Shown here: positions 5,321 through 42,539 of the stretch, piece after piece
How the letters are laid out: every line of letters starts with the position of its first letter
How positions within the stretch are numbered: position 1 is the stretch's first letter
Assembly (NCBI GenBank): GCA_964016885.1
Contig: OZ024762.1
Coordinates: 26,660,001 to 26,724,000, forward strand
Length of the DNA stretch: 64,000 nt
DNA from: Eledone cirrhosa
Taxonomy: Eukaryota
Reading direction: 5' to 3'
Notes under the pieces: model-generated
The model's database searches: none
What the model saw: the letters and a program-made list of their open reading frames with translations, nothing else
What the model was told of the DNA's origin: nothing
Position numbers and translations under genes: made by a program

Positions 5321-6976
5321 TTATTATTATTATTATTACAGTTACATTTATCTTGCTTTATGTTCATACGAGTTGTCACCAAGTCACAACCAGTGACCTC
5401 AAGAGACAACAAGGTCCGCCATGTTCAAGAAAGAACATACATACTCACACATGCTTCTTTAGTGTTTAGACTTGTGATGTACTTATATTGACAGAATCTT
5501 CCTTAGTATATGGGCAGTTCCCATTAGTACTATCTTTTGTATTTCTCCTATACGCGGGTTTCCTGGGATTTGCGATAAGTAATCATTAGACCCCTTAGGT
5601 ATCATTCCCAGAGCGCCTACAACCACTGGTATTGTTTTAGTTCTCAATTTCCACATTTTTCCAATTTCTATCTCCAGGTCCTTATACTTGCTCAATTTTT
5701 CAAATGTTTTTATAGATACATTCTTGTCTATTGGAACAGACATATCAATTAGCAGGCATACCCTCTTTTGAAAGTCTTTCAATATTATATCAGGTCTGTT
5801 TGCATCTATTTTTCGGTCTGTTTGGATGCTAAAGTTCCACAAGATTGAGATGTGATCTTTTTCAAGTATGGGAGGTGGTTGATGCTCCCACCAATTCTTT
5901 TGATGGGGCAGGTCAAAATGCTTACACATTATCCAATGTATGTATTGTGCAGCTCTGTCATGCCTGTTTAGGTATTCGGTTGGAGCTATAGGACTGCACA
6001 TTGAAATTATATGGTCAATGGTCTCTGGTTGTTTTTCGCATACACGGCATAATAGGCAGCACCCATTTTTTATTATGTTGGCTTGGTAATTTTTTGTTGG
6101 CAGACACTGATCTTGTGCCGATATAATCAGTCCTTCAGTCTCCGATTTCAGTCCAGAGGATGCCAACCACTGATGGGTTAAAGTTTTGTCAACATCAGGA
6201 TTGTTAGCTCGCTCTGGGTATTTTCCATACAGAGGCTTTTCTTGCCATTTCTTAGCCAGTTTCTGTAGCAGTTCTTTCTTTGCAGTTACTTTTACCTGTT
6301 TTGCTTTTTCTGTGTTTTCCATTTCAGCAGTAAATGGGACTTCTGAAATTTGTAGTCCATTACTGTATCTTTGTGCATCTTTTGTAATGGAATATGATCT
6401 TTTGATGCTTTCGTGTTTCAAAACGAGTTTGATCATCCAATCATGTGATTCCCTTAGATATGTAGATAATCCAATTGTTGCAGTTTTCAACGCAATGTCT
6501 AATTGGATTAACCCACGTCCTCCTTCTTTCGTAGGGAGATATATTCTATCTATATCTGCCTTAGGGTGATGCATTCTGTGCATGGTTAAGAATTTTCGAA
6601 TTTTTGTATCGAGCCTACGGATCTCTGTGCTTGACCAGTTGATGACATTGTAACTGTAGGTTACTACTGGTATGGCAAGCGTGTTTATGGCATCGATCCT
6701 ATTCCTTGCATTCAATTCCGTTCTTAAGATTGCTCTTACTCTGCGGTAACATTTCATCCTTATCCTTTCCCTCATTGTCGAGTGCTTGATTCCGTCTCCT
6801 TCACAAACACCTAGATATTTGTAAGTTTTTTTCTTGATCAAGTTCTCTTATCACGTTCCCTCGATCAAGATTAATGTCTGAACTCTTCAGCAGCTTTCCT
6901 CTGGTGAACGTTGCTTTGGCGCATTTATCTAGTCCAAACTCCATTTTAATGTCATCACTGAACTGCTTCACAGTGG
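5321..6976 (-). mobile_element. 5'-truncated R4/Dong-type non-LTR retrotransposon (RT C-terminus, CCHC, restriction-like endonuclease); ORF 5483-6841
   Basis: FSDDIKMEFGLDKCA, YKYLG, GGRGL, AQDQ, CRVC..ETIDHIISMC, RHD, NRPDII, KLSKY, VVGALG motifs; 3'UTR ends in (TAA)n. Confidence 0.92.
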
Positions 6977-12500: not shown

Positions 12501-12557
<57 letters not shown>

Positions 12558-12847
12558 AAATAACGAAACGAAATTAAATTTCGTTTCGTTTGTAACTCAC
12601 TTTTGTATGACTGACGCTTAAACAATTAAGTTAAAAAATGTACATCTACATATGCATACTGAAATACTAGTGTGTATATGAATACACACACGTATACATA
12701 TGTAGGTGTACCAAGTCTTTCACTGGTCGCTTTACAGTGAGCGGCCCAGCTATTCTGTATGTAAACACACAGACAAACCGGTTTTTAGAGTCATACTGGT
12801 TTTTCGGGGGAACACCTTCCCCCTATTCTCCAGAAAGCCAGACAAGG

Positions 12848-12892
12848 AACATTGAACTAGTTTCGTTGTTGTTACAACTCATCAGCAATATT
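12848..12892 (-). ncRNA. Type I hammerhead ribozyme (family A, unit 1)
   Basis: aatattg-CTGATGA-gttgt aaca acaac-GAAA-cta-GTT-caatgtt; palindromic ACTAGT stem III. Confidence 0.9.
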
Positions 12893-13316
12893 TACCTATC
12901 TACCGGCCTTTCTGGAGAATTGTAAAAGCACATATCGTTATATGCTTTTTCTATGAAAATTAGTAGTGGGCAGACTAATTTACATAGAGTGTGAGTACGC
13001 ACCGGTTCAGCGGAGACGATAAAAACAAATAACGAAACGAAATTAAATTTCGTTTCGTTTGTAACTCACTTTTGTATGACTGACGCTTAAACAATTAAGT
13101 TAAAAAATGTACATCTACATATGCATACTGAAATACTAGTGTGTATATGAATACACACACGTATACATATGTAGGTGTACCAAGTCTTTCACTGGTCGCT
13201 TTACAGTGAGCGGCCCAGCTATTCTGTATGTAAACACACAGACAAACCGGTTTTTAGAGTCATACTGGTTTTTCGGGGGAACACCTTCCCCCTATTCTCC
13301 AGAAAGCCAGACAAGG

Positions 13317-13361
13317 AACATTGAACTAGTTTCGTTGTTGTTACAACTCATCAGCAATATT
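13317..13361 (-). ncRNA. Type I hammerhead ribozyme (family A, unit 2)
   Basis: Identical to 12848-12892. Confidence 0.9.
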
Positions 13362-14028
13362 TACCTATCTACCGGCCTTTCTGGAGAATTGTAAAAGCAC
13401 ATATCGTTATATGCTTTTTCTATGAAAATTAGTAGTGGGCAGACTAATTTGCATAGAGTGTGAGTACGCACCGGTTCTGCGGAGACGATAAAAACAAATA
13501 ACGAAACGAAATTAAATTTCGTTTCGTTTGTAACTCACTTTTGTATGACTGACGCTTAAACAATTAAGTTAAAAAATGTACATCTACATATGCATACTGA
13601 AATACTAGTGTGTATATGAATACACACACGTATACATATGTAGGTGTACCAAGTCTTTCACTGGTCGCTTTACAGTGAGCGGCCCAGCTATTCTGTATGT
13701 AAACACACAGACAAACCGGTTTTTAGAGTCATACTGGTTTTTCGGGGGAACACCTTCCCCCTATTCTCCAGAAAGCCAGACAAGGAACATTGAACTAGTT
13801 TCGTTGTTGTTACTTTTTTAACTTAATTGTTTAAGCGTCAGTCATACAAAAGTGAGTTACAAACGAAACGAAATTTAATTTCGTTTCGTTATTTGTTTTT
13901 ATCGTCTCCGCTGAACCGGTGCGTACTCACACTCTATGCAAATTAGTCTGCCCACTACTAATTTTCATAGAAAAAGCATATAACGATATGTGCTTTTACA
14001 ATTCTCCAGAAAGGCCGGTAGATAGGTA

Positions 14029-14073
14029 AACATTGCTGATGAGTTGTAACAACCACGAAACTAGTTCAATATT
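14029..14073 (+). ncRNA. Type I hammerhead ribozyme (family A, inverted arm)
   Basis: aacattg-CTGATGA-gttgtaacaaccac-GAAA-cta-GTT-caatatt; one mismatch each in stems I and II. Confidence 0.8.
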
Positions 14074-14527
14074 CCTTGTCTGGCTTTCTGGAGAATAGGG
14101 GGAAGGTGTTCCCCCGAAAAACCAGTATGACTCTAAAAACCGGTTTGTCTGTGTGTTTACATACAGAATAGCTGGGCCGCTCACTGTAAAGCGACCAGTG
14201 AAAGACTTGGTACACCTACATATGTATACGTGTGTGTATTCATATACACACTAGTATTTCAGTATGCATATGTAGATGTACATTTTTTAACTTACACATT
14301 TTTTAACACACATTTTTTAACTTAATTGTTTAAGCGTCAGTCATACAAAAGTGAGTTACAAACGAAACGAAATTCAATTTCGTTTCGTTATTTGTTTTTA
14401 TCGTCTCCGCTGAACCGGTGCGTACTCACACTCTATGCAAATTAGTCTGCCCACTACTAATTTTCATAGAAAAAGCATATAACGATATGTGCTTTTACAA
14501 TTCTCCAGAAAGGCCGGTAGATAGGTA

Positions 14528-14572
14528 AATATTGCTGATGAGTTGTAACAACAACGAAACTAGATCAATGTT
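14528..14572 (+). ncRNA. Family A hammerhead with mutated cleavage triplet (GAT)
   Basis: aatattg-CTGATGA-gttgtaacaacaac-GAAA-cta-GAT-caatgtt; probably inactive. Confidence 0.7.
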
Positions 14573-14797
14573 CCTTGTCTGGCTTTCTGGAGAATAGGGG
14601 GAAGGTGTTCCCCCGAAAAACCAGTATGACTCTAAAAACCGGTTTGTCTGTGTGTTTACATACAGAATAGCTGGGCCGCTCACTGTAAAGCGACCAGTGA
14701 AAGACTTGGTACACCTACATATGTATACGTGTGTGTATTCATATACACACTAGTATTTCAGTATGCATATGTAGATGTACATTTTGTAACTTAATTG

Positions 14798-14942
<145 letters not shown>

Positions 14943-15819: not shown

Positions 15820-15824
<5 letters not shown>

Positions 15825-16095
15825 AGTATGTATGTATACAGACGTACAGTAGCATGTATATATATACATACAGGCACACATATGTATATGCACGTATCAG
15901 TTTACCGAACATTTATTATAATAAATGTTCGGTAAACTGATACGTACATATATATATGTGTGCCTGTATGTATATATATACATGCTACTGTACGTCTGTA
16001 TACATATATTTATGTACGTATACATACATACTTACATTTAAGTAAGTGCCGTATAAGAGTGAGAAATGAAATTTCGTTTCATTCTATTCCATTTA
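15820..16095. mobile_element. Short fold-back fragment of retrozyme family B
   Basis: tgtatacagacgtacagtagcatg arms inverted around ~15920; ends gagaaatgaaatttcgtttcattctattccattt(AT)n like other family B termini. Confidence 0.75.
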
Positions 16096-16141
16096 TATAT
16101 ATATATATATATAATATATATAATATATATATATATATATT

Positions 16142-16190
<49 letters not shown>

Positions 16191-16252
16191 TATATATATT
16201 ATATATATATAACATATATATATAATATATATATATATATTATACATATATA

Positions 16253-16328
<76 letters not shown>

Positions 16329-16335
16329 TTATATA

Positions 16336-16822
16336 TACGTTATTCGGGGTTGAATCGGAGGTAACCACAGTAAGTAAGGTACTCAATACATTGCAGAGTA
16401 TAAAAGTTTTAATATAGATGAGATTCTACAGGTCTAGAACTGTTTCATTCTTTAGAAATAATCAGGAATCTGATGATTTCTAAAGAATGAACAGTTCTAA
16501 TCCTGTAGAATCTCATCTATATTAAAAATATATTTTATATATATATATATATTAATTTATTAAAATAACAGATTATTTATTATTATTACTATATATATAT
16601 TATATATATATATATATAAATACATTATAATATAGATGAGATTCTACAGGACTAGAACTGTTTCATTCTTTAGAAATCATCAGAGATTCCTGATGATTTC
16701 TAAAGAAAGAAACAGTTCTAGTCCTGTGGAATCTCATCTATATTAAAACTTTTATACTCTGCAATGTATTGAGTACCTTTCTTACTGTGGTTACCTCCGA
16801 TTCAACCCGGAATAACGTAAAT
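16336..16822. mobile_element. Two fold-back PLE-type 3' ends centred on an HHR (same family as 49718-49768)
   Basis: Palindromes centred at ~16468 and ~16685 with gattc-CTGATGA-tttctaaagaaa-GAAA-cagttctagtcctg; terminus gattcaacccggaataacgta(TA)n. Confidence 0.8.
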
Positions 16823-16980
16823 ATATATTATATATATATATATTATATATATATATATATAATATATATATATTGTATATATATATAATATATATATAAT
16901 ATATATATATATATTATATATATATTATATATATTATATATATATATTATATATATATATTTATTAAAATAACAGATTAA

Positions 16981-17031
16981 AGTTTAAGCAAAGAATCGCT
17001 GCTTTCACCCTTAACGGGATCTTCTGAAACT
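16981..17031 (-). ncRNA. Hammerhead-like ribozyme, variant core CAGAAGA (Naiad 3'UTR)
   Basis: agttt-CAGAAGA-t ccc gttaa ggg t-GAAA-gca gcgattctt tgc-TT-aaact. Confidence 0.7.
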
Positions 17032-17952
17032 AACAAAGTCAATTTGTAAACGCAGAACTGGATATTTCAAAGAACGTTGCAAGCGGAGGAAGATAGGAAG
17101 ACGATATTTTGGTTCGTGGAAACGTTCACAAGCAAAGAACGGGAAAAAACGAACAAAACATCATTAATAGGAGCGGTGAAAAACAATTACGCGCAAAGAC
17201 AGAACCACGTTTATGGTATAAAAGAGGTCGTAGACTAATGTTCTCTTAGGTGGTGCATAGAGACGTTCTCTGGCAATGAACGAAAAAACGAAGATAATAC
17301 GTCATATGTCGTGCGTGAGGAACAATAGCACGCCAAGACAAAACCACGTAAATGGTATAGCAGAAGTCGTAGACTAAAATTCTAACTGGGAGACCAAATG
17401 AATCTCCGCTACAGAGTTAAGAACAAAGTAAATAAATATAATACAGAAGTAATAGAAATAGAAATAAATACATACACGCAAACAAATACGTACATACACA
17501 AGCATACGCAAAACCTTACCATAGGTATACAAAACCACGAACATATAAATGTGTGTGTGTGTATGCGTGTATACAAATAAATAATTATATAAACGTATAA
17601 GAATAAATAAATACGTATATAACAAGCGCACACACATACCTACATATAAATACACGAATGTTCGGAGACGTAAGTCAACTAAAACAAGAAGTACACATAT
17701 ACACACACCCACCATACGTACGAACCTGCATACTCACACAGACGCAAAACTCCCGTATACACATAGCCAAACCCTATGTACCAGTAAATAAAAGTATACG
17801 CCATAACAATCAAAGTTACGTACGAGAAGGTATACGTACCTTCACAAAACATACGGGTAATATATACTTACCTATGCAAATAAGTAAAGGAATAAACAAA
17901 ACATATACTTAGCTCCCACATCAAAACGTAAAATATCCACGTATAGATCGTA

Positions 17953-20030
17953 CTATCCGTTAGGGCATAACGTGGGGCTGTAATACAGGAAAGTTTTGTG
18001 CAATTTATGTTTACAAGCCGAAATTGCCTCAGATTTATTGTTTAAGATGTGGTCTGTGGCGTAGAGTATTTCCAGGGCCTCAGCGGCGCAGAGGTCACAT
18101 GGTCTTTTATTTCCGTTATACGATCTAGCCCTAGCTAGGATCTCCCAGTGTAACTTATATTGGGTGTGGTTGTTTTTTAGACTCCAGATATAAGCTGAAA
18201 GTGACGTCATATTCCTTCTCAGAGGGTAACGGAAAGAATGGGTATGCATGTAAAGACGCTGCTTGAAACTATTGGCGGTTAACCCTATGTAAGCCCTATG
18301 GGACGTGGGTGTTACAAACTTACATTTGTAGACAATGTTACTAGAATGGCATTTCCCGGATAGGGGGCAAACAGCCCGATTCCTACAATTACAGTTAGTA
18401 CTAACTACAGGGTTGCACGTGTTCCTACGGCTAGGTAGTTTACCTAAATTTGAAGCTGTGATGTTATGTGCAAGGTTAGGAGTCGTAGAGTAAGAAATTT
18501 TAATAGTATTTCTATTAAAAATTTTACTATATTTATGTGTAGGGGGAAAATGCTTTGTAATATGGGAAAGAAAGATCTTAGCTAATGGTGTGGCCACCTC
18601 CATATTATATGGTAGGTTATACCAACAAATGCGACGGGATCTATTTCTTCTAGGTCTATTTTCGTGCTTTGTATATGCTACCTTATCGACAAATCCACTT
18701 CGAGCAAGAGCTTCATTGTAATAAGTGGAATGGTCGTTGAAAATAGGCTCGTTGGTGGAAAGACGGCAAAGCCTCAACGAAACGTTTCTTACCAGGTTCT
18801 TGGTTATGCTGGCAGGATGGTTGGAATGCTTACTTATGTAATTAAGCGTATCATTCGGCTTTCTATACGGGTAATACAACCCATTCAATAAATTGAGGGT
18901 AACATCGAGGTAATTAACGACCGAGAGATTGGCCTCAACCTGTATAGAGAGGTTGAAGCCTTTAAAGAAGGCTGTGAGTTCTTTTATGAACCTGTCGCAA
19001 GAACGAGGTCCGCACTTAGTCATGAGACCATCGTCACGGTACAAACCACCGCCCGCGTTGGGGAATTCGTCCTTGATAGAGAAAAGAAGGAAAAGGCCAA
19101 TAAGATCAGTAACCTCCGCAGAGTCACTGGCGCCCATACTCACGTCGAATGGGGTACTATTGGATTTTTTAATCCAAATAGAGTCGTCGAAATTAATCAC
19201 CGACATTCGGGCATTGAGGATGACATCAACTTCGAAATCCTTAACCACTGTGAGTGTTTTAGCGAAATTGATAGCTCTAAGGAAAAGTGGTGAAGTGATG
19301 GACGAGTAATAATTGTTGATGTCGAATTGGATAAAACGGCAATGTTCCTTGTTACATATGCCGTTGAACCAATCAATCACCGCGAAAGAATTGTTCCACA
19401 GTGCAAGAGGGGCCAAACTTCTAATTTCAGGTATAATTCTATCAAGAATCGTTTTACTAAGTTTACCTAAATCGGACTTCGTAGGGTTAATAAGCCGAAT
19501 AGAGGGGTTGTTCGGAAAATTGGATTTGTGATCCTTTAGGGTAAAGTGGGGAGAAATCGGGTCCAGAGGTTCGGTCCGGTCCAGGATGTTGAGATTAGAT
19601 GTGATTTTAAACCCAGCATCGTTGATTTCATTGATGACGCACCGATTAGTTTTACGGTAATCCTTAGTTACAGCATTATGTAGTAGTTGATGGTAAGTAC
19701 TGCGCTCCACTTGATATAGGTTGCCAGTTTTTTCGGAATGGACGTGCACGGCGTTAGAATCCTTAATAGAACGAATTCTATTCTTCAGGTCTCGCTGGAA
19801 GGAATTGCTACTATTCCGAAATTTGATACTCCGAATGAGTTCCAAGACATCATTTTCGAAGTGTAGCAATGCTGGGTTCCACGGGGGGGGGGGGGGGTAT
19901 TATAGGTTTTAAATCCAAATTTATCCTGTTTGTTGTCTGCTTTTCGCGGATTATCGAAATAAAAGGCACGCCAACGCAACCTTTTAATGAACGCGTCTGT
20001 TTTCTGTATCAGGAGTTTTAGGTATGTTTT
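17953..20030 (-). CDS. Naiad-type PLE polyprotein (RT + CNC zinc knuckle + GIY-YIG endonuclease), one frameshift at the G15 run 19883-19897
   Basis: FIKRLRWRAFYF, TLKDHK, IRLINP, FDINNYYSSI, MGASDSAEVTDLIG, GLYRDDGL, YLDVTLNL, SNHP, CNCRNRAVCPLSGKC, IVYKC...YIG, CDLC...CKH. Confidence 0.93.
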
Positions 20031-20700
20031 AATAGAAATACTATTAAAATGTCTTACTCTACGACTCCTAACCTTGCACATAACATCACAGCTTCAAATT
20101 TAGCTAAACTACCTAGCCGTAGGAACACGTGCAACCCTGTAGTTAGTACTAACTGTAATTGTAGGAATCGGGCTGTTTGCCCCCTATCCGGGAAATGCCT
20201 CTCTAGTAACATTGTCAACAAATGTAAGGTTGTAACACCCACGTCCCATAGGGCCTACATAGGGTTAACCGCCAATAGTTTCAAGCAGCGGCTTTACATG
20301 AATACCCATTCTTTTCGTTACCCTCTAAGAAGGAATATGACGTCACTTTCAGCTTATATCTGGAGTCTAAAAGACCACACCCAATATAAGTTACACTGGG
20401 AGATCCTAGCTAGGGCTAGATCGTATAATGGAAATAAAAGACCATGTGACCTCTGCTCCGCTGAGGCCCTGGAAATACTCTACGCCACAGACCACATCTT
20501 AAACAAAAAATCTGAGGCAATTTCGGTTTGTAAACATAAATTGCACAAAACTTTCCTGTATTACAGCCCCACGTTATACCCTAACGGATAGTACGATCTA
20601 TACGTGGATATTTTACGTTTTGATATGGGAGCTAAGTATATGTTTTGTTTATACCATTACTTATTTGCATAGGTAAGTATATATTACCCGTATGCTCATG
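20030..20700 (+). mobile_element. Inverted 3' copy (GIY-YIG region) at the 5' truncation point of the Naiad element
   Basis: ORF 20049-20591 is nearly identical to the C-terminus of 17953-19869, on the opposite strand; typical PLE inverted pLTR. Confidence 0.9.
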
Positions 20701-22110
20701 TACCAGTATGTATAATATAATATATACGCCTATAACATATACAAGCCAATATACGTGCGAGGAAGTATACGTACCTTCACAAAACAAACAGGTAATATAT
20801 ACTTACCTATACAAATAAGTAATGGTATAAACATAACATATACTTAGCTACCACATCAAGATATAAAATATCCGCGTATAGATCGTACTATCCGTTTGGG
20901 TATAATGTGTGGCTGTAATATAGGAAAGATTTGTGCAATTTATGTTTACAAGCCGAAATTGCCTCAGATTTTTTGTTTAATATGTGGTCTTTGGCGTAGA
21001 GTATTTCCAGGGCTTCAGCGGCGCAGAGGTCACATGGTCTTTTATTTTCGTTATACGATCTAGCCTGAACTAGGATCTCCCAGTGTAACTTATATTGGGT
21101 GTGGTTGTCTTTTAGACTCCAGATATAAGCTGAAAGTGACGTCATATTCCTTCTTAAAGTGTTAAGAAAAGAATGGGTATGCATGTAAAGACGCTGCTTG
21201 AATCTATTGGCGGTTAACCCTATGTAGGCCCTACGGGACGGGGGTGTTTCAACCTTACATTTGTAGACAATATTACTAGAGAGGTAATTCCCGGATAGGG
21301 AGCAGTCAACCCGATTCTTACAATTGCAGTTAGTACTAGCTACAGGCTTGCACGTATTCCTACGGCTAGGTAATTTAGCTAAATTTGAAGCTGTGATGTT
21401 ATGAGCCAGATTAGGTGTCGTAGAGTAAGAAATGTTAATGGTATTTCTATTAAAAATTTTAGTATAATTATGTGCTGGGGGAAATGCGCTATAATAAGGG
21501 AGAGAAAGATCTTTGCTAATGGTGTGGCCACCTCCATATTATATGGTGGGTTATACCATAAAATGCGTCGGGATCTATTTTTCCTAGGTCTATTCTCATA
21601 CTCTGTATATGCTACCTCATCGACAAATCCACTCCGTTCAAGGGCTTCATTGTAATATGAGGAATGGTCGGTGAAAATATACTCGTTTGTAGATAGACGG
21701 GAAAGCCTCACAGAAACATTTCTTACCAGGTTCTTGGTTATGCTGGCAGGATGGTTAGAATGCTTACTTATGTAAGGAAGCGTATCATTCGGCTTTCTAT
21801 ACGGGAAGTGCAAGCCATTCGACAAATTGAGTGTAACGTCGAGGTAATTAACGACCGAGACGTTGGCTTCAACCTGTATGGAGAGGTTGAAGCCTTTAAA
21901 GAAAGCTGTGAATTCTTTTCTGAACCTATCGCAAGCACCTAGGCCGCACTTTGTCATGGTCAAAAGACCGTCATCACGCTACAAACCACTGCCCACGTTG
22001 GGGAATTCTTCCATGATAGAGAAAAGAAGGAAAAGGCCGATAAGATCAGAAACCTCCGCAGAATCGCTGACGCCCATACTCACATCGAATCGTGTACTAT
22101 TAGATTTTTA
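20700..22110 (-). pseudogene. Diverged 5'-truncated Naiad copy with frameshifts
   Basis: ORFs 20888-21184 and 21379-21963 are homologous to the thumb and GIY-YIG regions of 17953-19869. Confidence 0.9.
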
Positions 22111-22959: not shown

Positions 22960-23091
22960 GATAAATCTACCAAGAGTTTACGGTAGTGTCCAATCCGTAT
23001 GAAGAACTCAATGTATTCCGGATATCATGGAAAGAAGAGATGTAATAAAAATCCAATTTCGGTGAAAGATAAACGGTATACAGAGTCAAGA

Positions 23092-23493
23092 TAAAATATT
23101 AAACAAATAATGAACAAACAATTCCTTATATTAAACAAAAAAAGTTCACTATTTAACGATCGTTTCTAGGGTATATATGTGTTATAGTTGGTATGCATAT
23201 TTAACAGATCTATGTACAAAATTATACAAAATTATACAAATTATCAAGATTAAATATACATACCTAACTCATATATACGCCGTCTTCATTATTTCTGAAG
23301 ACGGCGTATATATGAGTTAGGTATGTATATTTAATCTTGATAATTTGTATAATTTTGTATAATTTTGTACATAGATCTGTTAAATATGCATACCAACTAT
23401 AACACATATATACCCTAGAAACGATCGTTAAATAGTGAACTTTTTTTGTTTAATATAAGGAATTGTTTGTTCATTATTTGTTTAATATTTTAT
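23092..23493. repeat. ~400-bp near-perfect palindrome of a Naiad-type 3' end
   Basis: Arms mirror around ~23288 (cgccgtcttca / tgaagacggcg). Confidence 0.9.
23285..23439 (+). ncRNA. Hammerhead-like ribozyme with ~115-nt stem II
   Basis: ttcattattt-CTGAAGA-[long hairpin cggcgtatatatg...catatatacccta]-GAAA-cgatc-GTT-aaatagtgaa; 10-bp stem I, palindromic ACGATCGT stem III. Confidence 0.75.
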
Positions 23494-24467: not shown

Positions 24468-25259
24468 AAAAAGGGACGTGATGCGTGACAGTTGTTTTTA
24501 AATATTAAGTCAGGTAGAAGCGACCAATTAAATACCGTTAAAATTATTACTATCTATTGTATTATACTAATATATTAAATCAAAATTAAACAATATGAAA
24601 TATTTTCAATGAGAATCAGAAGTATACTTAAATTAATAAATATATTCTATATTGTGTTACAAAATTCAAAATCAGAAACATTTAATCTACAAATAAAGTT
24701 TACAAATATAGTAAATATGTATGAGTATATTTATCATAACTTAATCACATATCACCATTTGTATATTCATGTTATACAATACATTATAAACATTACAAAC
24801 GGTTTAAATCAATAGTTGTCAATTACATATAGGATTAATTGATAGTTATATATACTCTTGAAAGTATTATTATTTCGAATCATCCTAATCCTACTACATG
24901 CAACAGTATAAATTATGTTAAATATACATTATTAATCCATTTGGATAAAAACGAAAATTATATACGATAAATGTAAACAAATGAGCTCCGTACAACATAT
25001 CTGGTCTTTTAAATTAGCTAAATGCTTTGAAAACCAGGAGGTGTTTCACATCACAAATTTAGAAAATTCAAGTTATTCAAAGACGATTCTAAAACCGAAC
25101 TAAAGGTATTTAGTCAATCATGAAATTAACTCACCATATAAAAGAGCCAATATGCAATTGTATAAGGTAAGGTAAAACATTATATATAATAACAACGGTA
25201 CCATTTCAAGAATTATTAATAAAAGTCAATATTTTTTCACTCATTCAGTGTTTTTTTTC

Positions 25260-25781
25260 TAAATTTAAATGATGCTTGAAATGATTTTCCAGATTTATGG
25301 AGGCAAGTTGCAAATAACTCATTTTTCTTATCAATTAAATTACCATAATTATTAATAGAGTTTCCAAATTGCAAAGATGGCAGATTGGTGAGATGGAAGC
25401 ATTCCGATATGATTGAAAGTTTCTGGGTATTTTATATTTTTCTCTTTCAAAGACCATATTAATTGTGATAACGAAGTAGAAAATGTTTTATGTGGATTAG
25501 AGAAAGAATGTTTATGATTGGAAAATCGAAGTTTAAAGTTCGATGAAGTTGCCCCTATGTAGTTATAAGTAATAATATTATTTGTTTTAATGGTACATTT
25601 ATATACTAAATTCTTATCAAGGCAATTATTTTGTAAAGGGCATTCAGATTTCCTTCTACAGTTACAGTTCGATTCAATGCTATTTCGATAACCTAAACTG
25701 TTCGTATTATCATTGTTAATGTTTCTGGGTGTTCCACTATATGTGTTTAATTTATTGTTATTGTTATTCGCATTAACTACT

Positions 25782-25825
<44 letters not shown>

Positions 25826-25830
25826 GTTGG
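25260..25830 (-). pseudogene. Naiad C-terminal fragment (poly-Asn linker, CNC knuckle, GIY-YIG)
   Basis: NCNCRRKSECPLQNNC..LVYKC..YIGATSSNFKLRFSNH, then frameshifted CHLC; 3'UTR runs to ~23950. Confidence 0.85.
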
Positions 25831-26045
25831 TGAAGCCACGCTTCTTATCGCCTCCAGTCTTTTTCAACGTTTACCTCTTTTTCAACCATTCTAAACCTTT
25901 TATTCAAGTTTTAAATTTGATAAAAGTTTAGAAGAAGTGACCCACCTAATACAGAGATTCACTAGTAAATAATACGGCACCCCTTTACGGGGTGTCGTAT
26001 TCGTATTCGTATTTGTGTAAAAATATTTTTTTTTTAAATTTCAAC

Positions 26046-27799
26046 ATGGATAACACAAAAAAGAGAGAGAGCGCTGTCAGACAACACAGAGAGAGGGAGA
26101 CTTTATCAGCATGTCAACAAGACAGCGTTCCAGCGGAGATAAATATAAACGAAAATATTACAATGGAAAAAAAGATTGTTACAGATTTAAAATTACCAAA
26201 TATTTCTAACACAAACAACACCAACAATAACACCAACAACATCACCAACAACACCAAAAATAACAGCGGTAAAGTCGAGAACGACAATAACAAAAATAAC
26301 AGCGGTAAGGTCGAGAACGACAATAACAAAAATAACAGCGGTAAGGTCGAGAACGACAATAACAATGACAATTACAACAGCCACAACAACAATAATAGTA
26401 GGAACAGTATCAACAAAAACAACAATAATAACAACAGCCACAATAACAGTAACAGCAGCAACAGTATCAACGAAAATAACACCAACAACTGTACCAGCGA
26501 AAAGAACAACAATGACACCGATACCTGTAATAGCGATCTCAGCACCACCAGTAAGACCAGTAGCGGCAGCAATAGTGGTGCTGCTCAAAAAGGGACCACT
26601 TCTTTTGCAGGTGTCGCCCGAAATATCGAGACAGTGTTAGTCACAGAGGAGGAGATGGCAGTCGCAAGGGCCATGGTGACAAGAAGCGCAAATAGAGTTT
26701 CCCAGAAACCTCCACCCGATTTTTTCAAGGACCAGCAGCTACGGACGGTGACTTACCGCACCGTAAGCAAAATCTCACATCGAGTGGAGAGAGCCACGGA
26801 GGCTCAAATCCAAAAGGCCTTGGAGTGCGTCTGGGCATGCAAAACCCACATCACCCGAAAGTACGCCACAGTAGACGTACTTTTCGCCACGCCCCAGGAA
26901 GTAAAGTCTCACTCTTTGGAAACCCTAAAGAGTGACGAGTTAGTCTTGGTGCCCTCCTACTGCGGCAAGAAATTTGTGAGGGTCAAACTGACCCAGGTCC
27001 CACTCGACGTGCCCATACCTTGGCTGGCCGCGTCTGTCCTTGCTGGAATTGAGAACAGGGCGACCATGCTGCAAGTAGAACAAATAGGGAGAGAGAACTG
27101 GTCAGGTATAGGCATGCAAATACTTATACAAACTGACCAGGAATGTATCGAGGCTATCCCCGATATCATAGACTTCGAGGAAGGACTCCAACTCCCTATA
27201 AGTGTAGAAGGAAGACGACCAAAATGTTATCTCTGTGGGTCGAAAGGTCACCTCAGGGCCTTTTGCCGCAGAAGACACCGAAGAGGGCCCCTCTCCTTCC
27301 AATACCTGGTCCGCTGCTACCAAGAGCAGGACAGGCAACAAACGAAGAAGCCCCTTCCACGGTGAGTAGGAGGGCAACGTCCGTAGCACCCGTACCAAGG
27401 CCACGGATAACTAAAGCAGCATCATCAGTAGCGGCAACACAAATAGCTACATTTGAAATGGCTACACCAGCAACAAAATTGCCGAAGAGGGCTCCACTAC
27501 CACCACCAACAGCCGTGGAGCACATACCCCTCCCAGACGCCACAGAAACAGACATGGATTTTGAGGCGGGAGTGACGTGGCAAACAGTCTGCCACAAAAA
27601 ACAAAAAACAAAAAACCCGTTAGATTCACCCTCCAAAAGCGAAGGCATACAAAGAGGGGTAAAGGCAGCAAGGAAACTTGCAGCAACACCACCACAAACA
27701 CGAACAACGCAAACACAACAAGACACACACACACCAAACAGCAACAAGAAGAAAACGGCAACAAAATCACCCCTCCCCCCAAAAAGTACACAGCCATAA
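26046..27799 (+). CDS. Tx1-type ORF1 (gag-like, CCHC zinc knuckle), frameshift near 27270
   Basis: ATG at 26046; Asn-rich N-terminus with 3x KNNSGKVENDNN; VEGRRPKCYLCGSKGHLRAFC; Pro/Thr-rich tail continues in the frame of 27143-27799. Confidence 0.8.
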
Positions 27800-28097
27800 T
27801 CATAGCAAAAAAAGAACTCATGAAATATATAAAGCAACACACAGACATCACGGAAAAAAACTATTACACTCCACCAACACCAAGAACTCTCCCGACAAAG
27901 ATAAGCATCATCGAAATCTCATTAGAACAATACAAACCTTTAAAACAAAAATTCCCCAACGCAGTTGGGGACTTCAGAGGATATACACTGACATCCTCTT
28001 GGAAACACCCATGACCAGCGAAAGGGATGGTTCTACTGTCCCTTCACCACGAACAAGGTAAGTGACCCTTTCTCATTTGCCCCGTTTCTCATCCAAC

Positions 28098-30474
28098 ATG
28101 GCTGTACTCAGAATAGGCAGTATAAATGCATGTGGCCTGGGATCATCTTGGAAGAGGGTCACCTGCTCAATGACCTCAGGTCACTAAACATAGATGTGGT
28201 GGCCATCAGTGAGACCAGAATCTCCGAGGCAGTGGCCTTCGCACCGATCTTCAGCGGCTACGATGTATACGCATCTCCCAGCCGTCCAGGATCGGGTGGT
28301 GGGGTTGCCTTCCTTTTTCGGAGAGGCTTGGAACTCACGATACGGGCCATCTTCCTGGATCCAGAAGGCAAGTCGGTGGTGCTGGACGTGACCGGCAGCG
28401 AAGGCAATGCTTTCAAGCTAGTGGCCGTCTACGCCCCAACAGGGGCAGGACGGCCAGATTTCTTCAGACGTCTAGAGACCTTTCTTGGAACGTCCCGATC
28501 TTTAGTGTTAGTGGGCGACGGGAACGGTATCTTAGATGCACGCTGGGATCGTGTGGGGATTATTGGATAGGGGAGGAGAGTGCAAGAGCCTCACCAACCT
28601 GCTCAGACGTTTTGAACTGTCTGACAGGTATCGACTGGATCACCCGAATGTGCCAATGTGGACATGGACAAACCGCATCGGGTCATCCAGATCGTATCTA
28701 GATAGGGTATTCTGCAGGGAACTAGATAAGGCTAGTATAAGTTGTCCACAATTTAAAATAGTCGACTACACAGACCACAAATTTGTGATCTGTGAGATCG
28801 ACATAGACAGACTTCATAGACAAGGGCCTGGTTACTGGAAGCTGAACGCGTCTTTCCCGGCGCGCAAGGCCTACAGAGACCGGATTAGTGTATTAGTTAA
28901 GCGGGCGTTGACGGGAGCGGTCGTCAACAACAGGTGGTGGTTCGCCCTGAAAAGGGCAATTAAAGTAGAGTCGATTAGGTTTAGCAAAGGAGTAGTGATA
29001 GAGGAAAATAGAGTAGAGGGAGAGCTAGTCAGAAAGCTAGAAGAGGCGTTTAGGACAGGCATCGCAACCGACGTGCTTGCGGCGAGATTGGCACTCGACC
29101 AATTCTTCAACGCAAAACACGAAGGCTGCGTTGTCAGAGCTAGAGCGCGTGCTCTGAAACACGAGGGGACAAAAGCCGTCCAATGGGCCCGGGTGGCAGA
29201 GGCGCGACGTGGCATCAAAGCCACAATTCGGTCTTTGCCTGACCAAAACGGGTGCCTGATGCTCGAACCCGAGCCGATGTGTGAAGCTTTTCAGCAGCAC
29301 TTTGCTGAACTGTTCGGGAGCGGCGGAGGCCTGGATTGGGGCATGGACTTCAGTGCATACCTCGACGGACTGCCTCGGCTCTCGACGACCGCAGCACAGT
29401 GTTGCGAAAAGCCAATAACAGCCGGTGAAATACGGGAAGCGATGGCTAACTGCACAAGAGGTAAATCGCCAGGTTTAGATAGTCTGCCCTACGAGCTTTA
29501 TGCATTTATGCCAGACTTGTTCGGTGACCTCTTGGCAGACGTCTACTGCAACTGGCAGCAGAACGGGACCTACCCAGTTTTGTGAGCCGGGGAGCAGTGG
29601 CGCTGCTGAGAAAAGACCCGAACAAGGGGTTGTTATTGATAATTTCAGGCCCATAACACTGCTAAACGCAGAGTTCAAGATTTTGGCCAAGGTGTTAGCA
29701 ACGAGGTTGGCGCTTGTCGTCAAGGGTCTGGTGGGAGAGGCGCAGACATGCGCCATTCCGGACAGATCCATACACGACAACCTCCACCTCATGAGATACA
29801 TCATAGAGAGGGTGGTTAAGGAACCTGGCAAGGGTGGGGCGCTGTTCAACTTTGATCAATCCAAAGCATTCGATAGGGTCGACCATCGGTACCTGGCGGC
29901 GGTCCTCGAGGCAGCCGGTTTCGGGCCCGTTTTCAGGGGTTGGATCGCAGCAATGTACAGCGACATCTGCTCAGTTGTGAGGGTGAACGGTCACCTGTCG
30001 CAGCCGTTCAGCATCATGCGCTCAGTCCGCCAGGGTTGTCCCCTCTCGTCCCTCTTGTACGTATTGGCTCTCGAGCCGTTATGCACAATCTGGGGGCGAT
30101 GAGGGGCGAACTAGGATGCGGGAAATCCGAGTCGGCTTATGCTGACGACGTCATCGTGGTGGTGTCGAGCACCAGACACGTCCAGATGCTCGGCACCGCT
30201 CTCAAGGAATACGAAACGGTGACAGGAGCAAAGATAAACCAGGAAAAGTCGGTGGGCTTGCAGCTAGGCACCTGGAGAGGCAAGTCCATGCCGTACGTCA
30301 GCGTCGTGTCGCGTTGGACGGACGGACCGGTAAATTGCTCGGGGTCTGGTTCGGACCAAACCTCCAGATGGAGAAAAACTGGAACGAGGTGACGAGCAGG
30401 GTGGCGTCCCTCACCCAGAAATGGGCTGAGAGGAAGCTGTCCCTGAAAGGCCGGGCGGAAGTGGCGAATGCGTG
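28098..30474 (+). pseudogene. Tx1-type ORF2 (APE endonuclease + reverse transcriptase), frameshifted
   Basis: MAVLRIGSINACGL, ISET, GGVA, VYAP, VGD, YLDRVF, TDH, GYWKLN, KSPGLD, FRPITLLN, DQSKAFDRVDH, VRQGCPLS, YADD. Confidence 0.92.
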
Positions 30475-31916: not shown

Positions 31917-32204
31917 TTACTGGTTTGAATTAAGAATTTTGCTATTAATTTGTGCAATATTTTGAGAAATATTCATAATTGTCGCGTAAGAAAGTTTAAC
32001 TGTGTGTCTATTGAAGATAGAGTAATACTTATGTGATCTAGGGAACCATTTATCTAAGGCTTTAAAAAATAAATGTGCTAAAGGTGTTTTATTAGCTAAA
32101 AACGCTGGTGGGGCATACCAAATAATAGATCTAGTTCTAAACTTTTTCTTCGATTTATTCTCCAAATTGTTGTTTTTATTTGTATTTTTAGCGTCAGTTT
32201 TATT

Positions 32205-32239
<35 letters not shown>

Positions 32240-32730
32240 GAATATTGCGTTTATAATTACTATTATTTTTATCTACATATTCGATATTATTTTTATATCC
32301 TGCTTTATGTAACGCTTCATTATCCAGCATTAGTATTAAAAATGGATTTGTTAGCAGATAATCTATTATACGTTGCATTTTTAACAATTTTAGGATGATT
32401 AGAATAAAAACTAATATAATTTAGGTTTTCATTGGGTTTATGGAAAGGGTAATATAGGCCTGAGTTTAAATTAAGGGTTATGTCTAAGAAGTTAACTATT
32501 ATATTGTTATTTTTTACTTGTAATTTAAGGTCGTAATTTTTAAAGAATTCTACAATTAGTTTCTTTACTCTATTTAATTCACTATTATTATGTTTAACTA
32601 CAGTAAATAATATGTCATCACTATATAAACCACAGGTAATCTCCGGCCGTTTTCTATTTACCATATTAAGGATGAAAATTCCCACAAGATCAGTAACTTG
32701 CGCGGAATCGGACGAGCCCATAGTAATCAA
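31917..32730 (-). pseudogene. Naiad RT/thumb fragment
   Basis: ITMGSSDSAQVTDLVG, GLYSDDIL, FLDITLNL, SNHP, IIWYAPP, IFNRHTVKLSY. Confidence 0.88.
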
Positions 32731-32837
32731 TGAACCTTATTAACATTTGATCATATTTAGCTCCCAGAAGGTAGAGCGCTTCTTCTGCAATAGATTATCA
32801 ATTAATAAATGATGGAATTCTTTATATATATATATAT

Positions 32838-35983
<3,146 letters not shown>

Positions 35984-38028
35984 GGTCGTTAATTACCTCG
36001 ACGTTACCCTCAATTTATTGAATGGGTTGTATTACCCGTATAGAAAGCCGAATGATACACTTAATTACATAAGTAAGCATTCCAACCATCCTGCCAGCAT
36101 AAACAAGAACCTGGTAAGAAACGTTTCGTTGAGGCTTTCCCGTCTTTCCACCAACGAACGTATTTTCAACGACCATTCCACTTATTACAATGAAGCTCTT
36201 GCTCGAAGTGGATTTGTCGATAAGGTAGCATATACAGAGTACGAAAATAGACCTAGAAGAAATAGATCCCGTCGCATTTGTTGGTATAACCCGCCATATA
36301 ATATGGAGGTGGCCACACCATTAGCTAAGATCTTTCTTTCCCTTATTACGAAGCACTTTCCCCCTACACATAAACATAGTAAAATTTTTAATAGAAATAC
36401 TATTAAAATTTCTTACTCTACGACTCCTAACCTTGCACATAACATCACAGCTTCAAATTTAGCTAAACTACCTAGCCGTAGGAACACGTGCAACCCTGTA
36501 GTTAGTACTAACTGTAATTGTAGGAATCGGGCTGATTGCCCCCTATCCGGGAAATGCCTCTCTAGTAACATTGTCTACAAATGTAAGGTTGTAACACCCA
36601 CTTCCCGTAGGGCCTACATAGGGTTAACCGCCAATGGTTTCAAGCAGCGTCTTTACATGCATACCCATTCTTTTCGTTACCCTCTAAGAAGGAATATGAC
36701 GTCACTTTCAGCTTAAATCTGGAGTCTAAAAGACAACCACACCCAATATAAGTTACACTGGGAGATCCTAGCTAGGGCTAGATCGTATAACGGAAATAAA
36801 AGACCATGTGACCTCTGCGCTGCTGCGGCCCTGGAAATTCTCTACGCCACAGACCACATCTTAAACAAAGAATCTGAGGCAAGTTCGGCTTGTAAACATA
36901 AATTGCACAAAACTTTCCTGTATTACAGCCCCACGTTATACCCTAACGGATAGTACGATCTATACGTGAATATTTTACGTCTTGATGTGGGAGCTAAGTA
37001 TATGTTTTGTTTATTCCTTTACTTATTTGCATAGGTAAGTATATATTACCCGTATGTTTTGTGAAGGTACGTATACCTTCTCGTACGTTTATTTGATTGT
37101 AATTTTTCATATATTCTGGTACATAGGGTTTGGCTATGTGAATACGGGAGTTTTGCGTCTGTGTGAGTATGCAGGTTCGTACGTATGGTGGGTGTGTGTA
37201 TATGTGTATTTCTTGTTTTAGTTGACTTACGTCTCCGAACATTCGTGTATTTATATGTAGGTATGTGTGTGCGCTTGTTATATACGTATGTATTTATTTA
37301 TATACGTTTATATAATTATTTATTTGTATACACGCATACACACACACACATATTTATATGTTCGTGGTTTTGTATACCTATGGTAAGGTTTTGCGTATGC
37401 TTGTGTATGCACGTATTTGTTTACATGTATGTATTTATTTATTTCTATTTCTTCTGTATTGTATTTATTTACTTTGTTCTTAACTCTGTAGCGGAGATTC
37501 ATTTGGTCTCCTAGTTAGAATTTTAGTCTACGACTTCTGCTATACCATTTACGTGATTTTGTCTTTGCGTGCTATTGTTCTCCACGCTCCACATTCACGT
37601 ATTATCTTCGTTTTTTCGTTCATTGCCAGAGAACGTCTCTATGCACCACCTAAGAGAACATTAGTCTACGACCTCTTTTATGCCATAAACGTGGTTCTGT
37701 CTTTGCGTGTAATTGTTTTTCACCCCTCCTATTAATGACGTATTATTCGTTTTTCCCCGTTCTTTGCCAGCGAACGTCTCCACGAACCAAAGTATTGTCT
37801 TCATGTCTTCCTCCAGTTGCAACGTTTTTTGAAATATCCAGTTCTGCGTTTACAGATTGAATTTGTTAGTTTCAGAAGATACCGTTAAGGGTGAAAGCAG
37901 CGATTCTCTGCTTAAACTTTAATCTGTTATTTTAATAAATATTTGCTCTACGGTTCTTATATATTTGATATATATCTATCCTTATCGAGCCCTCTTTGGA
38001 TTTTAGTCTTCAAATTTATTATCATTAC

Positions 38029-38030
<2 letters not shown>
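35984..38030 (+). mobile_element. 5'-truncated Naiad, same family as 16960-20030 (ORF 36018-36953 with one internal TAA)
   Basis: Near-identical protein and 3'UTR; ends ggattttagtcttcaaatttattatcattac(TA)n. Confidence 0.92.
37868..37918 (+). ncRNA. Hammerhead-like ribozyme, variant core CAGAAGA
   Basis: agttt-CAGAAGA-taccgttaagggt-GAAA-gcag cgattct ctgc-TT-aaact. Confidence 0.7.
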
Positions 38031-38125
<95 letters not shown>

Positions 38126-38338
38126 CGTTTCTGAATTTGTTTAGCAAGATTCTTTATCTGAAATCGTGTGTTGAAACCGATATTGTTATACTTTGGGAGG
38201 GTCGTGTTGCCAATAAGAAACACACGCACCAGTTGCTTTCACTTCAATTTAATTTAATATATATTTATAAATTTACAAATTTATAAATTTCTGGTTGGTT
38301 GGTTGGTTCCACAACCAGATAGTTGTTTATATATATAT

Positions 38339-38383
38339 AGTCATAGTTCTTTCGTCACACACTCTGTGACCTCTTCAGTGACT
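38339..38383 (-). ncRNA. Minimal hammerhead-like motif in PLE pLTR
   Basis: agtca-CTGAAGA-g gtcac agagtgt gtgac-GAAA-gaa-CTA-tgact. Confidence 0.7.
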
Positions 38384-38680
38384 GGGGATTTCTTTCTTCG
38401 TTTCTGTGCCTTTCCTTTCTTCTATCCTACGCCATTTTGTTTGTGTGTGGGTTGCGTGCTCAGTTTGCGCATGCGCCACATCCGGGTGTCTGTGTGTGTT
38501 TGTGTTCATTTTTCTATTTTTCTATTTATATTTGTTTGTTTATTTATTTATTTATTGTTGGTTGGTTGTTTGTTCTATGTGTGTGTGTGTTTTCATTTTG
38601 TCTTGTGTGTGTTTTCATTTTGTGTGTGTTTTCAATTGTAAGTTGTTTGTTCTATGTGTGTGTGTGTTTTCATTTTGTCC

Positions 38681-41600
38681 TTAATTGTAAGTTGTGATGT
38701 TGCTGTTCCACTCATATTTTCTATTTAATTTTGGTTTTAATTCTTTTATGCTTACTGCCTCTGTAATTTGCCTAAACATTGCGTCTTTCTTGTGTGTGGA
38801 TTCTATTTTTATTTCTATGCTCTCTAATTTACCCCTGTGTTCTATCTTAGCATGTTGGTAGAGCACAGATGATTCTTTACTATCTTGGAGGTCTCGCCAG
38901 TGTTCATTTATTCGTTCCCCTATACTACGAGCTGTCTCACCGATGTACACTATATTTTTGTTTCTACATTGTCCTTCAGTACATCTTATGCTATATACTA
39001 CATTTCTAGTTTTACAGTTAATATGGGGGCTTATTTTACAGGTTATACATTTCTTATCTATACATGAGGGTCTTTGGAACGGGTATGTCTTGCTAATAAG
39101 TGTTTTTACGGAGGTACCAGGTCTTTCTACTATCTTAATATTGAGATTATGTTTCTTTAGGGCCCTTCTAAATTTGTAGGCTAGTTCGCCTCTAGGGGTT
39201 GTATTGATGAACATTACACTCTGGTATTTATTGCTATCATACCATGAGTTTATTCTATTGGCCTTGTTCTTAGTTCTTTCTATTCTATTCCAAAATTTGC
39301 TCCTATACAAGGGGCAGGTCCCATTTATGTCATTATTTACCATTTTTTCCCATTTGGTTCTGGCTCCTTTATACACTCTGATTCTATCTCTCTGATTGTA
39401 GCCAGAGAACTGCATACGGTGGATGAAGTGTTGTATGTGTCTCTCTAGTTCTTCGGGGTTGCACATGCGGGACACATTTCTCATCACCCGTATCAAATCC
39501 GCAATCAGTATGTTGATTTTGGTATGGTCCGAAATGGCCGAGTTTCGGTGGATCAGATGTTTGGAAGTCATGGGTTTGGCATAATGGGAATGGAGGATTT
39601 GTTTTTGGTTGTTAATAGTATCTAACCAGAGCTCTGTGTCTAGTACAGGTAATCGATGGTTGGGGTGTCTACTTGGGTAGTCTATAGTAACTCTAATGCT
39701 CTGGTGGATGGAGTTTGCTATTTGCTGGATGCTTTCCATTGTGTTTTTCTCTGGTTCCTGACTGTTCTTTAGTGGGGGTGTCTTAACTACGATGTTTATA
39801 TCATCTACGTAGCGGGAGTACATTATCAGGGTTAAGCTGTCTTCTAATTGTTCTTTAAGTTTTTTTTTAAGTCTACTGTCCCACCATACCATGAACAAGT
39901 TAGCTATGTCGCCTGCAATGCTAACACCAATGGCTGCTCCTTCCTCTTGGGCATATGTTTTACCATTAAATTTGAACATATGTTCCTTAAGGGTTAATTT
40001 TATGCTGGCCCCTACCGCATGTGCAATCATTTTCTTCAGTTCATCGTGGTTTTCGGGTGTCCGTATGGCTCTGGTCCACCCGTTCCATCTATCTGTGTGG
40101 GTTTTCTTGGCCATTGAGGTAATGGTAGGTGGTCTGCCTCTTGCTGGTCTTGTAGGGCACAGGTTGCTAAGGTCATAAGTGTCTAGGTAACTATTACTAT
40201 GGGTAAGCTTAAGTAGAAGTCCCAGCTCACTGGTATCAATCCCACGGAACTCAACCTTGCTCTCGCTGATCATTTCGACGCATTTCTCCACAGCAAAATC
40301 CACGTCAATAGATGGATACAGGGACACAACATCCATACTGCCTATTATGCAGTTTGTTAGGTCCCCAGATCGGTTACCCGCGCCGATTCTGCTGAGGAGG
40401 TCCTCCGTGCTGTCACACACATCTGGGGACATCTCAATGATGGGGCGTATGATCAGGGAGAGGAAGTAGGACAGTCTGTAGTTACTAGCAATGTTAGCCC
40501 CACAGACTGGCCGTGTTGGTGGTCCCGCGACAGGGTCCCAGCCCGTTTTATGGTCTTTTCGAAGCCCATACAACGCCGGCACGTCATTGTTCCAGGCCTG
40601 GAAGTTGTTGGCAGTCCTTTTGTTGGGCTGCATTATATTTGTCCACATCACCATATGGGCATTGAGGGTTTTTTCTCTATCCTCATGCTCCTGTGGTGTT
40701 ACCTCTCTTGTGTTAGTGATGTGGGGTTGCATTGCCTGGATGTAGTTTGGCAGGCTGTCAACCGACATTCTGCCAGACTTGTCTGTTGGAAAGCATGCTA
40801 TCTCTCCATTACGCGAGCGCTGCATGAGCTTACGCAAGCCATTTGCAGATTCTTCTCCCAGTTGCTGGGCCTCTATTCTATTATGCTTCTTGCTATACTG
40901 TTCTATAATATTTCTAAGTTCGGATTTAGCTATACTAAATTGTGCTTCTGTTTGTTCATCGACCTGCGACGGCAACTGCGTGCGTTTGTTAAATGGCAAA
41001 GTCGTGGCGTGGACTCGTCGTAGGTCGAATGATTTATCGGAGGGGTTATAAAACGGAGAGTTCCAGGCTGCTGCTTTATGTGTACTAGTGCTATTGTTAG
41101 TTGTGTTGTTTCTATTTCCACCAACAGCAGCAGCCTCAGCTTCATGGTTGTTTCTATGTCTCTCATAATTACTCCTGTCTCTTTCCACTGGCTCAATGTT
41201 GTTATCTACCCTATTTTGTGTGTCTGTGTGTTCGTCTTGGTTATTCTCTTTGTCCTTAGTCTCCCTACTCCTTTTAATCCTATTAGTTTCTCTTATTTCT
41301 CTGATTTCTGTGCTACTGTCATTACTTGTTTTCTGTGTCTGTGTGTTTGTTAAGATTGTAGTGGTGGTGAGAGGCATTGAATGTGTGTGTGTTGTTGTTG
41401 TTGATGTGTGTTGTTGTTGATGTGTGTTGTTGTCTCCGTGTGTGTGTGTGTTATCGTTGTTGTGTGTGTTGTTATTGTTGTTTGTGTTTGCGTGTCTGTT
41501 GTTGTTGTATCTGGGTATGTTGCTGTTGTTGTTGTTGTTGATGTGTGTGTTGTTGTTATTGTTGTCTCCGTGTGTGTTGTTATTGTTGTTTGTGTCTGCG

Positions 41601-42286: not shown

Positions 42287-42331
42287 AGTTACTGAAGAGG
42301 TCACAGAGTGTGTGACGAAAGAACTATGACT
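42287..42331 (+). ncRNA. Minimal hammerhead-like motif in the inverted pLTR
   Basis: agtta-CTGAAGA-ggtcac agagtgt gtgac-GAAA-gaa-CTA-tgact. Confidence 0.7.
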
Positions 42332-42482: not shown

Positions 42483-42528
<46 letters not shown>

Positions 42529-42539
42529 TATATATATAT

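Follow-up and report, generated by a model that had tools for sequence, protein, structure and literature searches.

A hammerhead retrozyme of Eledone cirrhosa inserted head-to-head in (TA)n, probably copied from an edited RNA circle by a Penelope-like element

In total, 64,000 nucleotides of Eledone cirrhosa DNA (contig OZ024762.1, positions 26,660,001–26,724,000; hereafter, the window) were analysed. The locus studied is an insertion in (TA)n, belonging to a repeat family referred to as family A, whose two arms consist of 2.7 + 2.1 units of a 469-bp hammerhead repeat joined head-to-head (5′-to-5′). The analysis suggests that the locus is probably a non-LTR retrozyme, derived from an A-to-I-edited monomeric circle through rolling-circle reverse transcription by a Penelope-like element (PLE) protein that primes twice. 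Somewhat more cautiously, the arrays of the family may be read as a fossil record, in which a PLE reverse transcriptase (RT) would have primed twice inside a single ADAR-edited circular RNA and made a rolling-circle copy in both arms.

Tandem Repeats Finder detected a period of 469 (99% matches, 2.7 copies) at 12550–13813, in agreement with the period given by an earlier reading of the sequence alone, and a second tandem array at 13814–14793, which according to self-comparison is the reverse complement of the first. The tandem array described in that sequence-only reading for 12554..14797 is therefore real within each arm, but it is not head-to-tail throughout, as the arms are opposite in strand. 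Unit positions are numbered here from the presumed cleavage site (GUU|CAAUG = 1). Arm 1, on the minus strand, extends from its truncated inner end at unit 449 to fixed site 2 at its outer end (unit ~302–305, in this locus 305), while arm 2, on the plus strand, extends from its inner end at unit 217 to fixed site 1 at its outer end (unit ~233–236, in this locus 236). The locus comprises the following features:

12505–12554, no strand: (TA)25 target repeat, left flank
12550–13813, minus: arm 1 with 2.7 units, the ribozyme being encoded on the minus strand
12550–12618, minus: outermost stretch of arm 1
12832–12903, minus: hammerhead 1 (type I), intact, expected to be cut after GUU between 12855 and 12854
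13301–13372, minus: hammerhead 2 (type I), intact, expected to be cut between 13324 and 13323
13793–13813, minus: hammerhead 3′ half where arm 1 is truncated on its inner side
13814–14799, plus: arm 2, inverted, 2.1 units and a 30-bp insert, ribozyme sense on plus
14018–14089, plus: hammerhead 3, with both helix I and helix II mismatched
14295–14324, plus: 30-bp stutter insert immediately upstream of site 1, found in this locus only
14517–14588, plus: hammerhead 4, with A in place of U16.1 and hence expected to be inactive
14798–14939, no strand: (TA)71 target repeat, right flank

Apart from the 30-bp insert, just one 5-nt case (L160) was found at ~410 sites (overlapping loci included), and telomerase-like stuttering at site 1 was therefore rejected. 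The unit has a G–C content of 37.7% and, as had been claimed before, no credible ORF: the longest ATG ORF encodes 19–20 aa and the longest stop-free stretch 84 aa, circular reading included, and no ORF with the RT and GIY-YIG parts of an autonomous PLE was found in the unit. The predicted fold has a z-score of −11.1 (0/100 shuffles were equally stable) and contains all five of the hairpins listed previously.

The hammerhead core at the window locus (CTGATGA..GAAA CTAG TT) is of type I, with the CUGANGA/GAAA/NUH core, three helices and helix I open; helix I is bulged, as the sequence-only reading had noticed. One hammerhead per unit had been claimed, and four complete cores were indeed found, but only two of them are fully intact: in the core at 14535, the invariant U16.1 is replaced (GAT instead of GTT), and helices I and II of the core at 14036 are mismatched. 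Likewise, the palindrome ACTAGT attributed to stem III is real, but helix III itself is a single A–U pair capped by a palindromic CUAG loop. The ACUAGU self-duplex is calculated at −7.2 kcal/mol; helix III is thus poor as a monomer helix, which suggests that cleavage may be dimer-dependent. According to PMC7229834, axolotl HHR_Amex1 has this one-pair helix III, and its cleavage is poor in the monomer but good in the dimer. This weak-helix-III newt/axolotl type is closer to family A than the Schistosoma Sm-alpha hammerhead with which it had been compared, the latter being taken as it was described there. No Rfam family reached its gathering score in the window locus; the best match was Hammerhead_HH9 (35 bits vs. 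a cut-off of 52; E-value, 1.7e-6), with four places at 25–35 bits. Hammerhead_1, the model proposed for an Infernal check, was absent from the matches, from which the tool had left out five lower-scoring overlaps of the same clan.

Across 56 natural units, 97.4% of the cells are paired. Double-sided pair changes number four (one in helix II), below the shuffled mean of 5.7, the units being related and the structure that of the first sequence. When subfamilies and sister families are compared, both helix I and helix II contain compensatory pairs, among them compensatory changes in helix I of sister families B and C. H17 is G in 2/782 matches, with overlapping loci counted repeatedly, and no opposite-strand hammerhead core was found in the unit.

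Sister family B (50900–52730) has a ~470-nt hammerhead unit with a GUA triplet, head-to-head arms and two fixed ends in (TA)n, its cores lying at 51472 and 51942 on the minus strand and at 52259 on the plus strand. The same anatomy is displayed by sister family C (~420 nt, CUGACGA core) and by B/C fragments at 48587–49414, 54124–54811, 56079–56330 and 15820–16100. Unrelated hammerhead-like motifs, each within its own repeat, are located at 22450 (plus), 24088 (minus), 49724 (plus), 57660 (plus) and 63985 (minus), and at 16167–16964 a degenerate member of the 49724 family forms a palindrome.

The exact core occurs 5,142 times in the genome, and a wider pattern covering non-GUU relatives 27,818 times (reversed control, 0 in both cases). 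Exact site-2/(TA) junctions number 2,205 (reversed control, 0), and site-1/(TA) junctions, searched with one form of site 1, number 1,021 (reversed control, 2). The genome-wide copy count called for earlier thus amounts to at least 2,205 family A insertions. Their identity to the window unit is ~85–99% over the family and 98–99% within the window subfamily; the description of the element as young fits the subfamily, but not the family as a whole.

Of the first 100 site-2 loci listed on contig C1, 87 were mapped; once one duplicate and 13 loci that continued past the end of the retrieved sequence had been set aside, 73 were evaluable. In 53 of these 73 unselected loci, an inverted arm starts at site 1: it is long and starts at unit 225–237 in 44 loci, every one at (TA)n, and short in nine, while the other 20 were unscored, some of them through parsing. 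The insertions end at two fixed unit positions ~69 nt apart, whereas their inner junctions are scattered, mostly with a 0–9 nt overlap or a few added bases, and the arms reach ~20 units among the loci examined. The 2,205 fixed-end junctions, together with random inner truncation, indicate dispersal by retrotransposition. The units are tandem and non-coding, each carries a type I hammerhead, at least two follow one another, and self-pairing is strong by both measures given above; the identification of the element as a retrozyme is accordingly supported. Fold-back self-priming of the inverted arm was rejected for most loci (mirror junctions, 2/42; inverted arm longer than the direct one, 18/42). 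As side observations, the arms of L178 are separated by a GC-rich foreign insert of 65 nt, L127 and L128 represent one insertion found twice, ~18 kb apart (either through segmental duplication or as an artefact of the assembly), and pieces of the unit were present at low depth in runs X5 and X6 (organisms B and C), as relatives or contamination.

The defining anatomy, which the sequence-only reading missed, consists of arms joined head-to-head, priming ends at two fixed positions and targeting of (TA)n, and it connects the element with PLEs. For PLEs, PMC8557442 and PMC3846280 describe truncated arms in inverted orientation, a tail on one side and a preference for (TA)n. As reported in PMC11167929, a purified PLE protein cuts and extends both strands and primes internally at two tail-bounding sites, its main in vitro substrate is unprocessed RNA, and hammerhead mutants insert normally. 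In family A, an inverted 5′-truncated arm with a tail at one end was observed in the 53/73 loci mentioned above, and the two fixed ends, combined with random microhomology joins, constitute the PLE signature of two-site priming and tail. Any target-site duplication would be hidden by the (TA)n repeats. Thus, it is very likely that family A is a PLE-mobilised retrozyme.

An autonomous PLE is present in the window at 38033–42619, with a 1,038-aa frame giving a weak RVT_1 match, an inverted pLTR and hammerheads at 38378 (minus) and 42292 (plus). There are 38,200 candidate matches to it, 150/150 of those scored being 100% identical, and it shows the same two-end pattern as family A, with two fixed ends ~60 nt apart in (TA)n. 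It is a very active PLE of the C-terminal-endonuclease family, putatively Neptune-like, a label read by eye from the cysteine linker and not from a tree. Two direct retrozyme–PLE junctions were detected among 295 sequences, both with this 38-kb PLE family, and none with four PLE sequences labelled Hydra-like by eye. One of the two is a clean chimera (L004:1491–2840) that combines a family A arm with PLE coding sequence and a PLE end in inverted orientation; the PLE end and family A site 2 lie on opposite sides, with a 7-nt overlap. The other junction (L037) is ambiguous. The terminal reverse-complement match of the unit to the 38-kb PLE is 18/21 (5/300 shuffles), while another family gave 1/300, in 10 tests in all. 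The 38-kb PLE family is tentatively proposed as the likeliest driver of family A. No coding partner was found by protein searches, by a profile scan among the matches listed or by inspection of ORF-adjacent hammerheads. No autonomous PLE sharing unit sequence was present in the 87 tail-anchored loci, beside PLE ORF matches or among the five PLE sequences of the window that were compared.

Other Hydra-like PLE copies, recognised by eye, are located at 16814–22109, 35976–38029, 24480–25870, 31917–34560 and 42620–44030, some of them as inverted pairs ending in (TA)n, and a near-perfect palindrome of 403 bp (23091–23493) is related to the 3′ end of the 42620–44030 element. Frames resembling LINE-type ORF1, endonuclease or RT were seen by eye at 25950–30392, 5483–6847, 8–653, 50207–50764 and 59838–60329; the four of these that were scanned had no Pfam match.

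The changes fixed in whole arrays show a strand bias. A variant was regarded as array-fixed when present in all units of the array (an earlier counting rule gave 12:2). On the ribozyme strand of 55 pooled loci, the array-fixed variants comprise 19 A>G and 6 T>C among 48 events, as compared with 23 A>G and 37 T>C among 290 unit-private events (Fisher p = 0.002 for the contrast). The fixed A>G:T>C ratio was 15:5 in the discovery set (21 loci) and 8:2 in the replication set (34 loci; p = 0.11 alone), with just 4:1 among the replication events unseen in discovery, and the changes shared in 14 two-unit loci were 13:1 of 22. In a third set of 20 further loci, selected for likeness to L130, 12 had no fixed change, two had another haplotype and six had a single fixed change (4 A>G, 1 T>C, 1 G>A), while private A>G:T>C was 6:6. 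The autonomous PLE used as a control gave 12:13, despite sense-strand A being twice as frequent as T. Since C>T:G>A was 7:7, selection for wobble pairs alone fails to explain the bias. One locus, L135, carries eight A>G and one C>T, the same in every pass of both arms, and a 28-nt motif with five of these A>G changes has four matches genome-wide, all inside L135. The neighbour and pairing preferences of ADAR are reflected in no more than a weak trend (5′ G at 1/19 fixed A>G vs. 16% background; paired sites at 14/19 vs. 61%), and position-5 G is present in 4/5 copies in the window rather than in all of them. Judging from the sequence pattern, the A>G bias probably originates from ADAR. The fixed-only bias fits one edited sense-strand monomer read several times, or may stem from a parent outside the assembly. 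The circular RNA proposed in the sequence-only reading thereby receives indirect backing from the genome.

Over 128 arms, termination occurs at ~1.3 per 1,000 nt with a roughly constant hazard, and the corresponding length is ~790 nt. In 189 passes of the cut site, two stops fell within ±3 nt against 1.7 expected, eight loci being left out of this count; in a window of ±5 nt, six stops vs. 2.65 (p = 0.053) leave room for a small excess. A cleaved linear monomer was rejected as the template because the arms read through the cleavage site, and this read-through implies that the template was either circular or a multimer left uncut. In young arrays, the units of both arms are uniform (18/18 identical in L181), while most older arrays are star-like. 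Uniform haplotypes recur, that of L181 at 100% in four other loci (one haplotype-recurrence search was made without scoring of the query's own locus); array homogeneity is thus non-discriminating and was no longer taken to prove a circle. In 24/44 arrays with at least four units, there are variants common to some but not all units, in 15 of these arrays at two or more columns. Periodic internal blocks were found in L130/L182, L217 and L219, two haplotypes are mixed in both L189 and L289, and L226 is a 13-unit mosaic of several interleaved haplotypes with mainly A/G differences, possibly derived from a multimeric circle or template switching. These patterns indicate that multimeric templates, template switching or later local duplication also occur; still, a circular monomer was probably the main template of family A.

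Several other origins of the arrays were considered. The one with the greatest weight, although clearly improbable, is that a PLE-mobilised repeat was copied from an uncleaved linear multimeric transcript, in which the hammerhead is a passenger and uniformity stems from young masters and later local unit duplication. Cut-site read-through is equally compatible with such a template, as are the identical haplotypes in several loci, the periodic internal blocks, the normal insertion of hammerhead mutants (PMC11167929) and the cleavage of 1/9 Xenopus dimers reported in bioRxiv 10.64898/2026.07.22.740005. Independently edited linear units should, however, show an excess of private A>G, and the absence of such an excess makes the fit poor: at ~4 fixed changes per 17 loci, ~30 private A>G would be expected over ~150 passes, a rate that is an upper bound if some of the changes were inherited, whereas six were seen, equal to T>C. 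The private eight-edit pattern of L135, present in both arms, and the compensatory pairs kept in the hammerhead helices also speak against it.

Edits would likewise be fixed in all units if the circle had been amplified from RNA to RNA in the fashion of viroids before a PLE copied the resulting uniform multimers, and RNA–RNA replication is raised in PMC7229834 for mussel retrozyme circles matching no genomic entry. Nevertheless, the absence of an opposite-strand hammerhead core from the unit and the extra step, needless under rolling-circle reverse transcription, make this quite improbable. Still less credence, the possibility being largely refuted, is given to an orphan pLTR or satellite amplified and homogenised as DNA without a current RNA phase. 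Local duplications are present, and local amplification of solo pLTRs is proposed in bioRxiv 10.64898/2026.07.22.740005, but dispersed two-fixed-end insertions in (TA)n, random inner truncations and the strand-specific A>G bias require an RNA step, and the symmetric fixed changes expected from DNA-level homogenisation were not seen.

The preferred explanation, rolling-circle reverse transcription of an edited monomeric circle, would proceed as follows. An array would be transcribed on the ribozyme strand; by analogy with the newt/axolotl type, neighbouring hammerheads would pair via the palindromic helix III and cut after GUH, and the monomers would be ligated into circles, a lone circle being hard to re-cut. 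The hairpin-rich RNA would then gain A-to-I edits, presumably by ADAR, leaving the observed A>G bias. A PLE endonuclease/RT, the presumed enzyme, would nick both strands of the (TA)n target and prime internally at two sites ~69 nt apart, which correspond to the observed ends. Both cDNAs would circle one RNA for ~790 nt at a constant hazard, as the arm lengths and shared variants suggest, and the cDNA ends would finally be joined through short microhomology, as seen at the joins.

Among known systems, family A resembles the metazoan non-LTR retrozymes, especially axolotl Rtz_331 with HHR_Amex1 (Cervera & de la Pena 2020, PMC7229834): these share a non-coding, low-GC, self-paired unit, one type I hammerhead per unit with a one-pair helix III and palindromic tetraloop, thousands of copies, and PLEs in the same genome. 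According to the same source, metazoan retrozymes are ~170–400 nt long and their circles have been demonstrated, whereas family A units measure 465–470 nt, have GUU/GUC triplets and are predicted to form circles. Head-to-head arms, two fixed ends and a tail distinguish family A further, the words 'inverted' and 'microsatellite' being absent from the main text of that article. Retrozymes of Xenopus and other vertebrates, presented as non-autonomous PLE derivatives in bioRxiv 10.64898/2026.07.22.740005, share the PLE link and a size range (51–972 bp) that includes family A; the unit therefore lies at the long end, as had been stated, of the former range but not of the latter. The Xenopus link rests on pLTR homology and co-occurrence, in contrast to insertion anatomy and one chimera in family A, for which pLTR homology was not found, and the template type is addressed here, unlike in the Xenopus study.

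Similarities to EN+ PLEs (Penelope/Poseidon, Neptune, Hydra; PMC8557442, PMC3846280, PMC11167929) include partial tandems, an inverted 5′-truncated arm, a tail at one end, (TA)n preference, a hammerhead upstream of the ends and two internal priming sites, although family A has no ORF, a tail of ~69 nt instead of 30–40 nt, and arms of up to ~20 units. Non-autonomous Chlamys elements such as MRC1 are, as described in PMC8557442, also non-coding, multicopy and PLE-mobilised, but most Chlamys lack canonical hammerheads and their non-autonomous elements resemble the partner at the 3′ end.

The non-LTR retrozyme class and the PLE/circle hypothesis have already been published: circles as RT templates and PLEs as drivers are put forward as hypotheses in PMC7229834, while the retrozyme mechanism is called unresolved in bioRxiv 10.64898/2026.07.22.740005. 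Neither the head-to-head two-site anatomy nor an editing record of retrozymes was found in the literature, searched at title and abstract level, with most subscription journals and supplements outside the search. The comparison of fixed and private variants by strand offers a sequence-only test for any genome with such arrays, and family A supplies two priming sites whose positions are mapped, together with a candidate active enzyme that could be assayed in vitro. A possible route from RNA edits to heritable DNA is thereby indicated. If the arrays are indeed such a fossil record, this genome, with its >30,000 related hammerheads, allows single template molecules to be read from DNA, and animal retrozymes would evolve largely through RNA editing written back to the genome.
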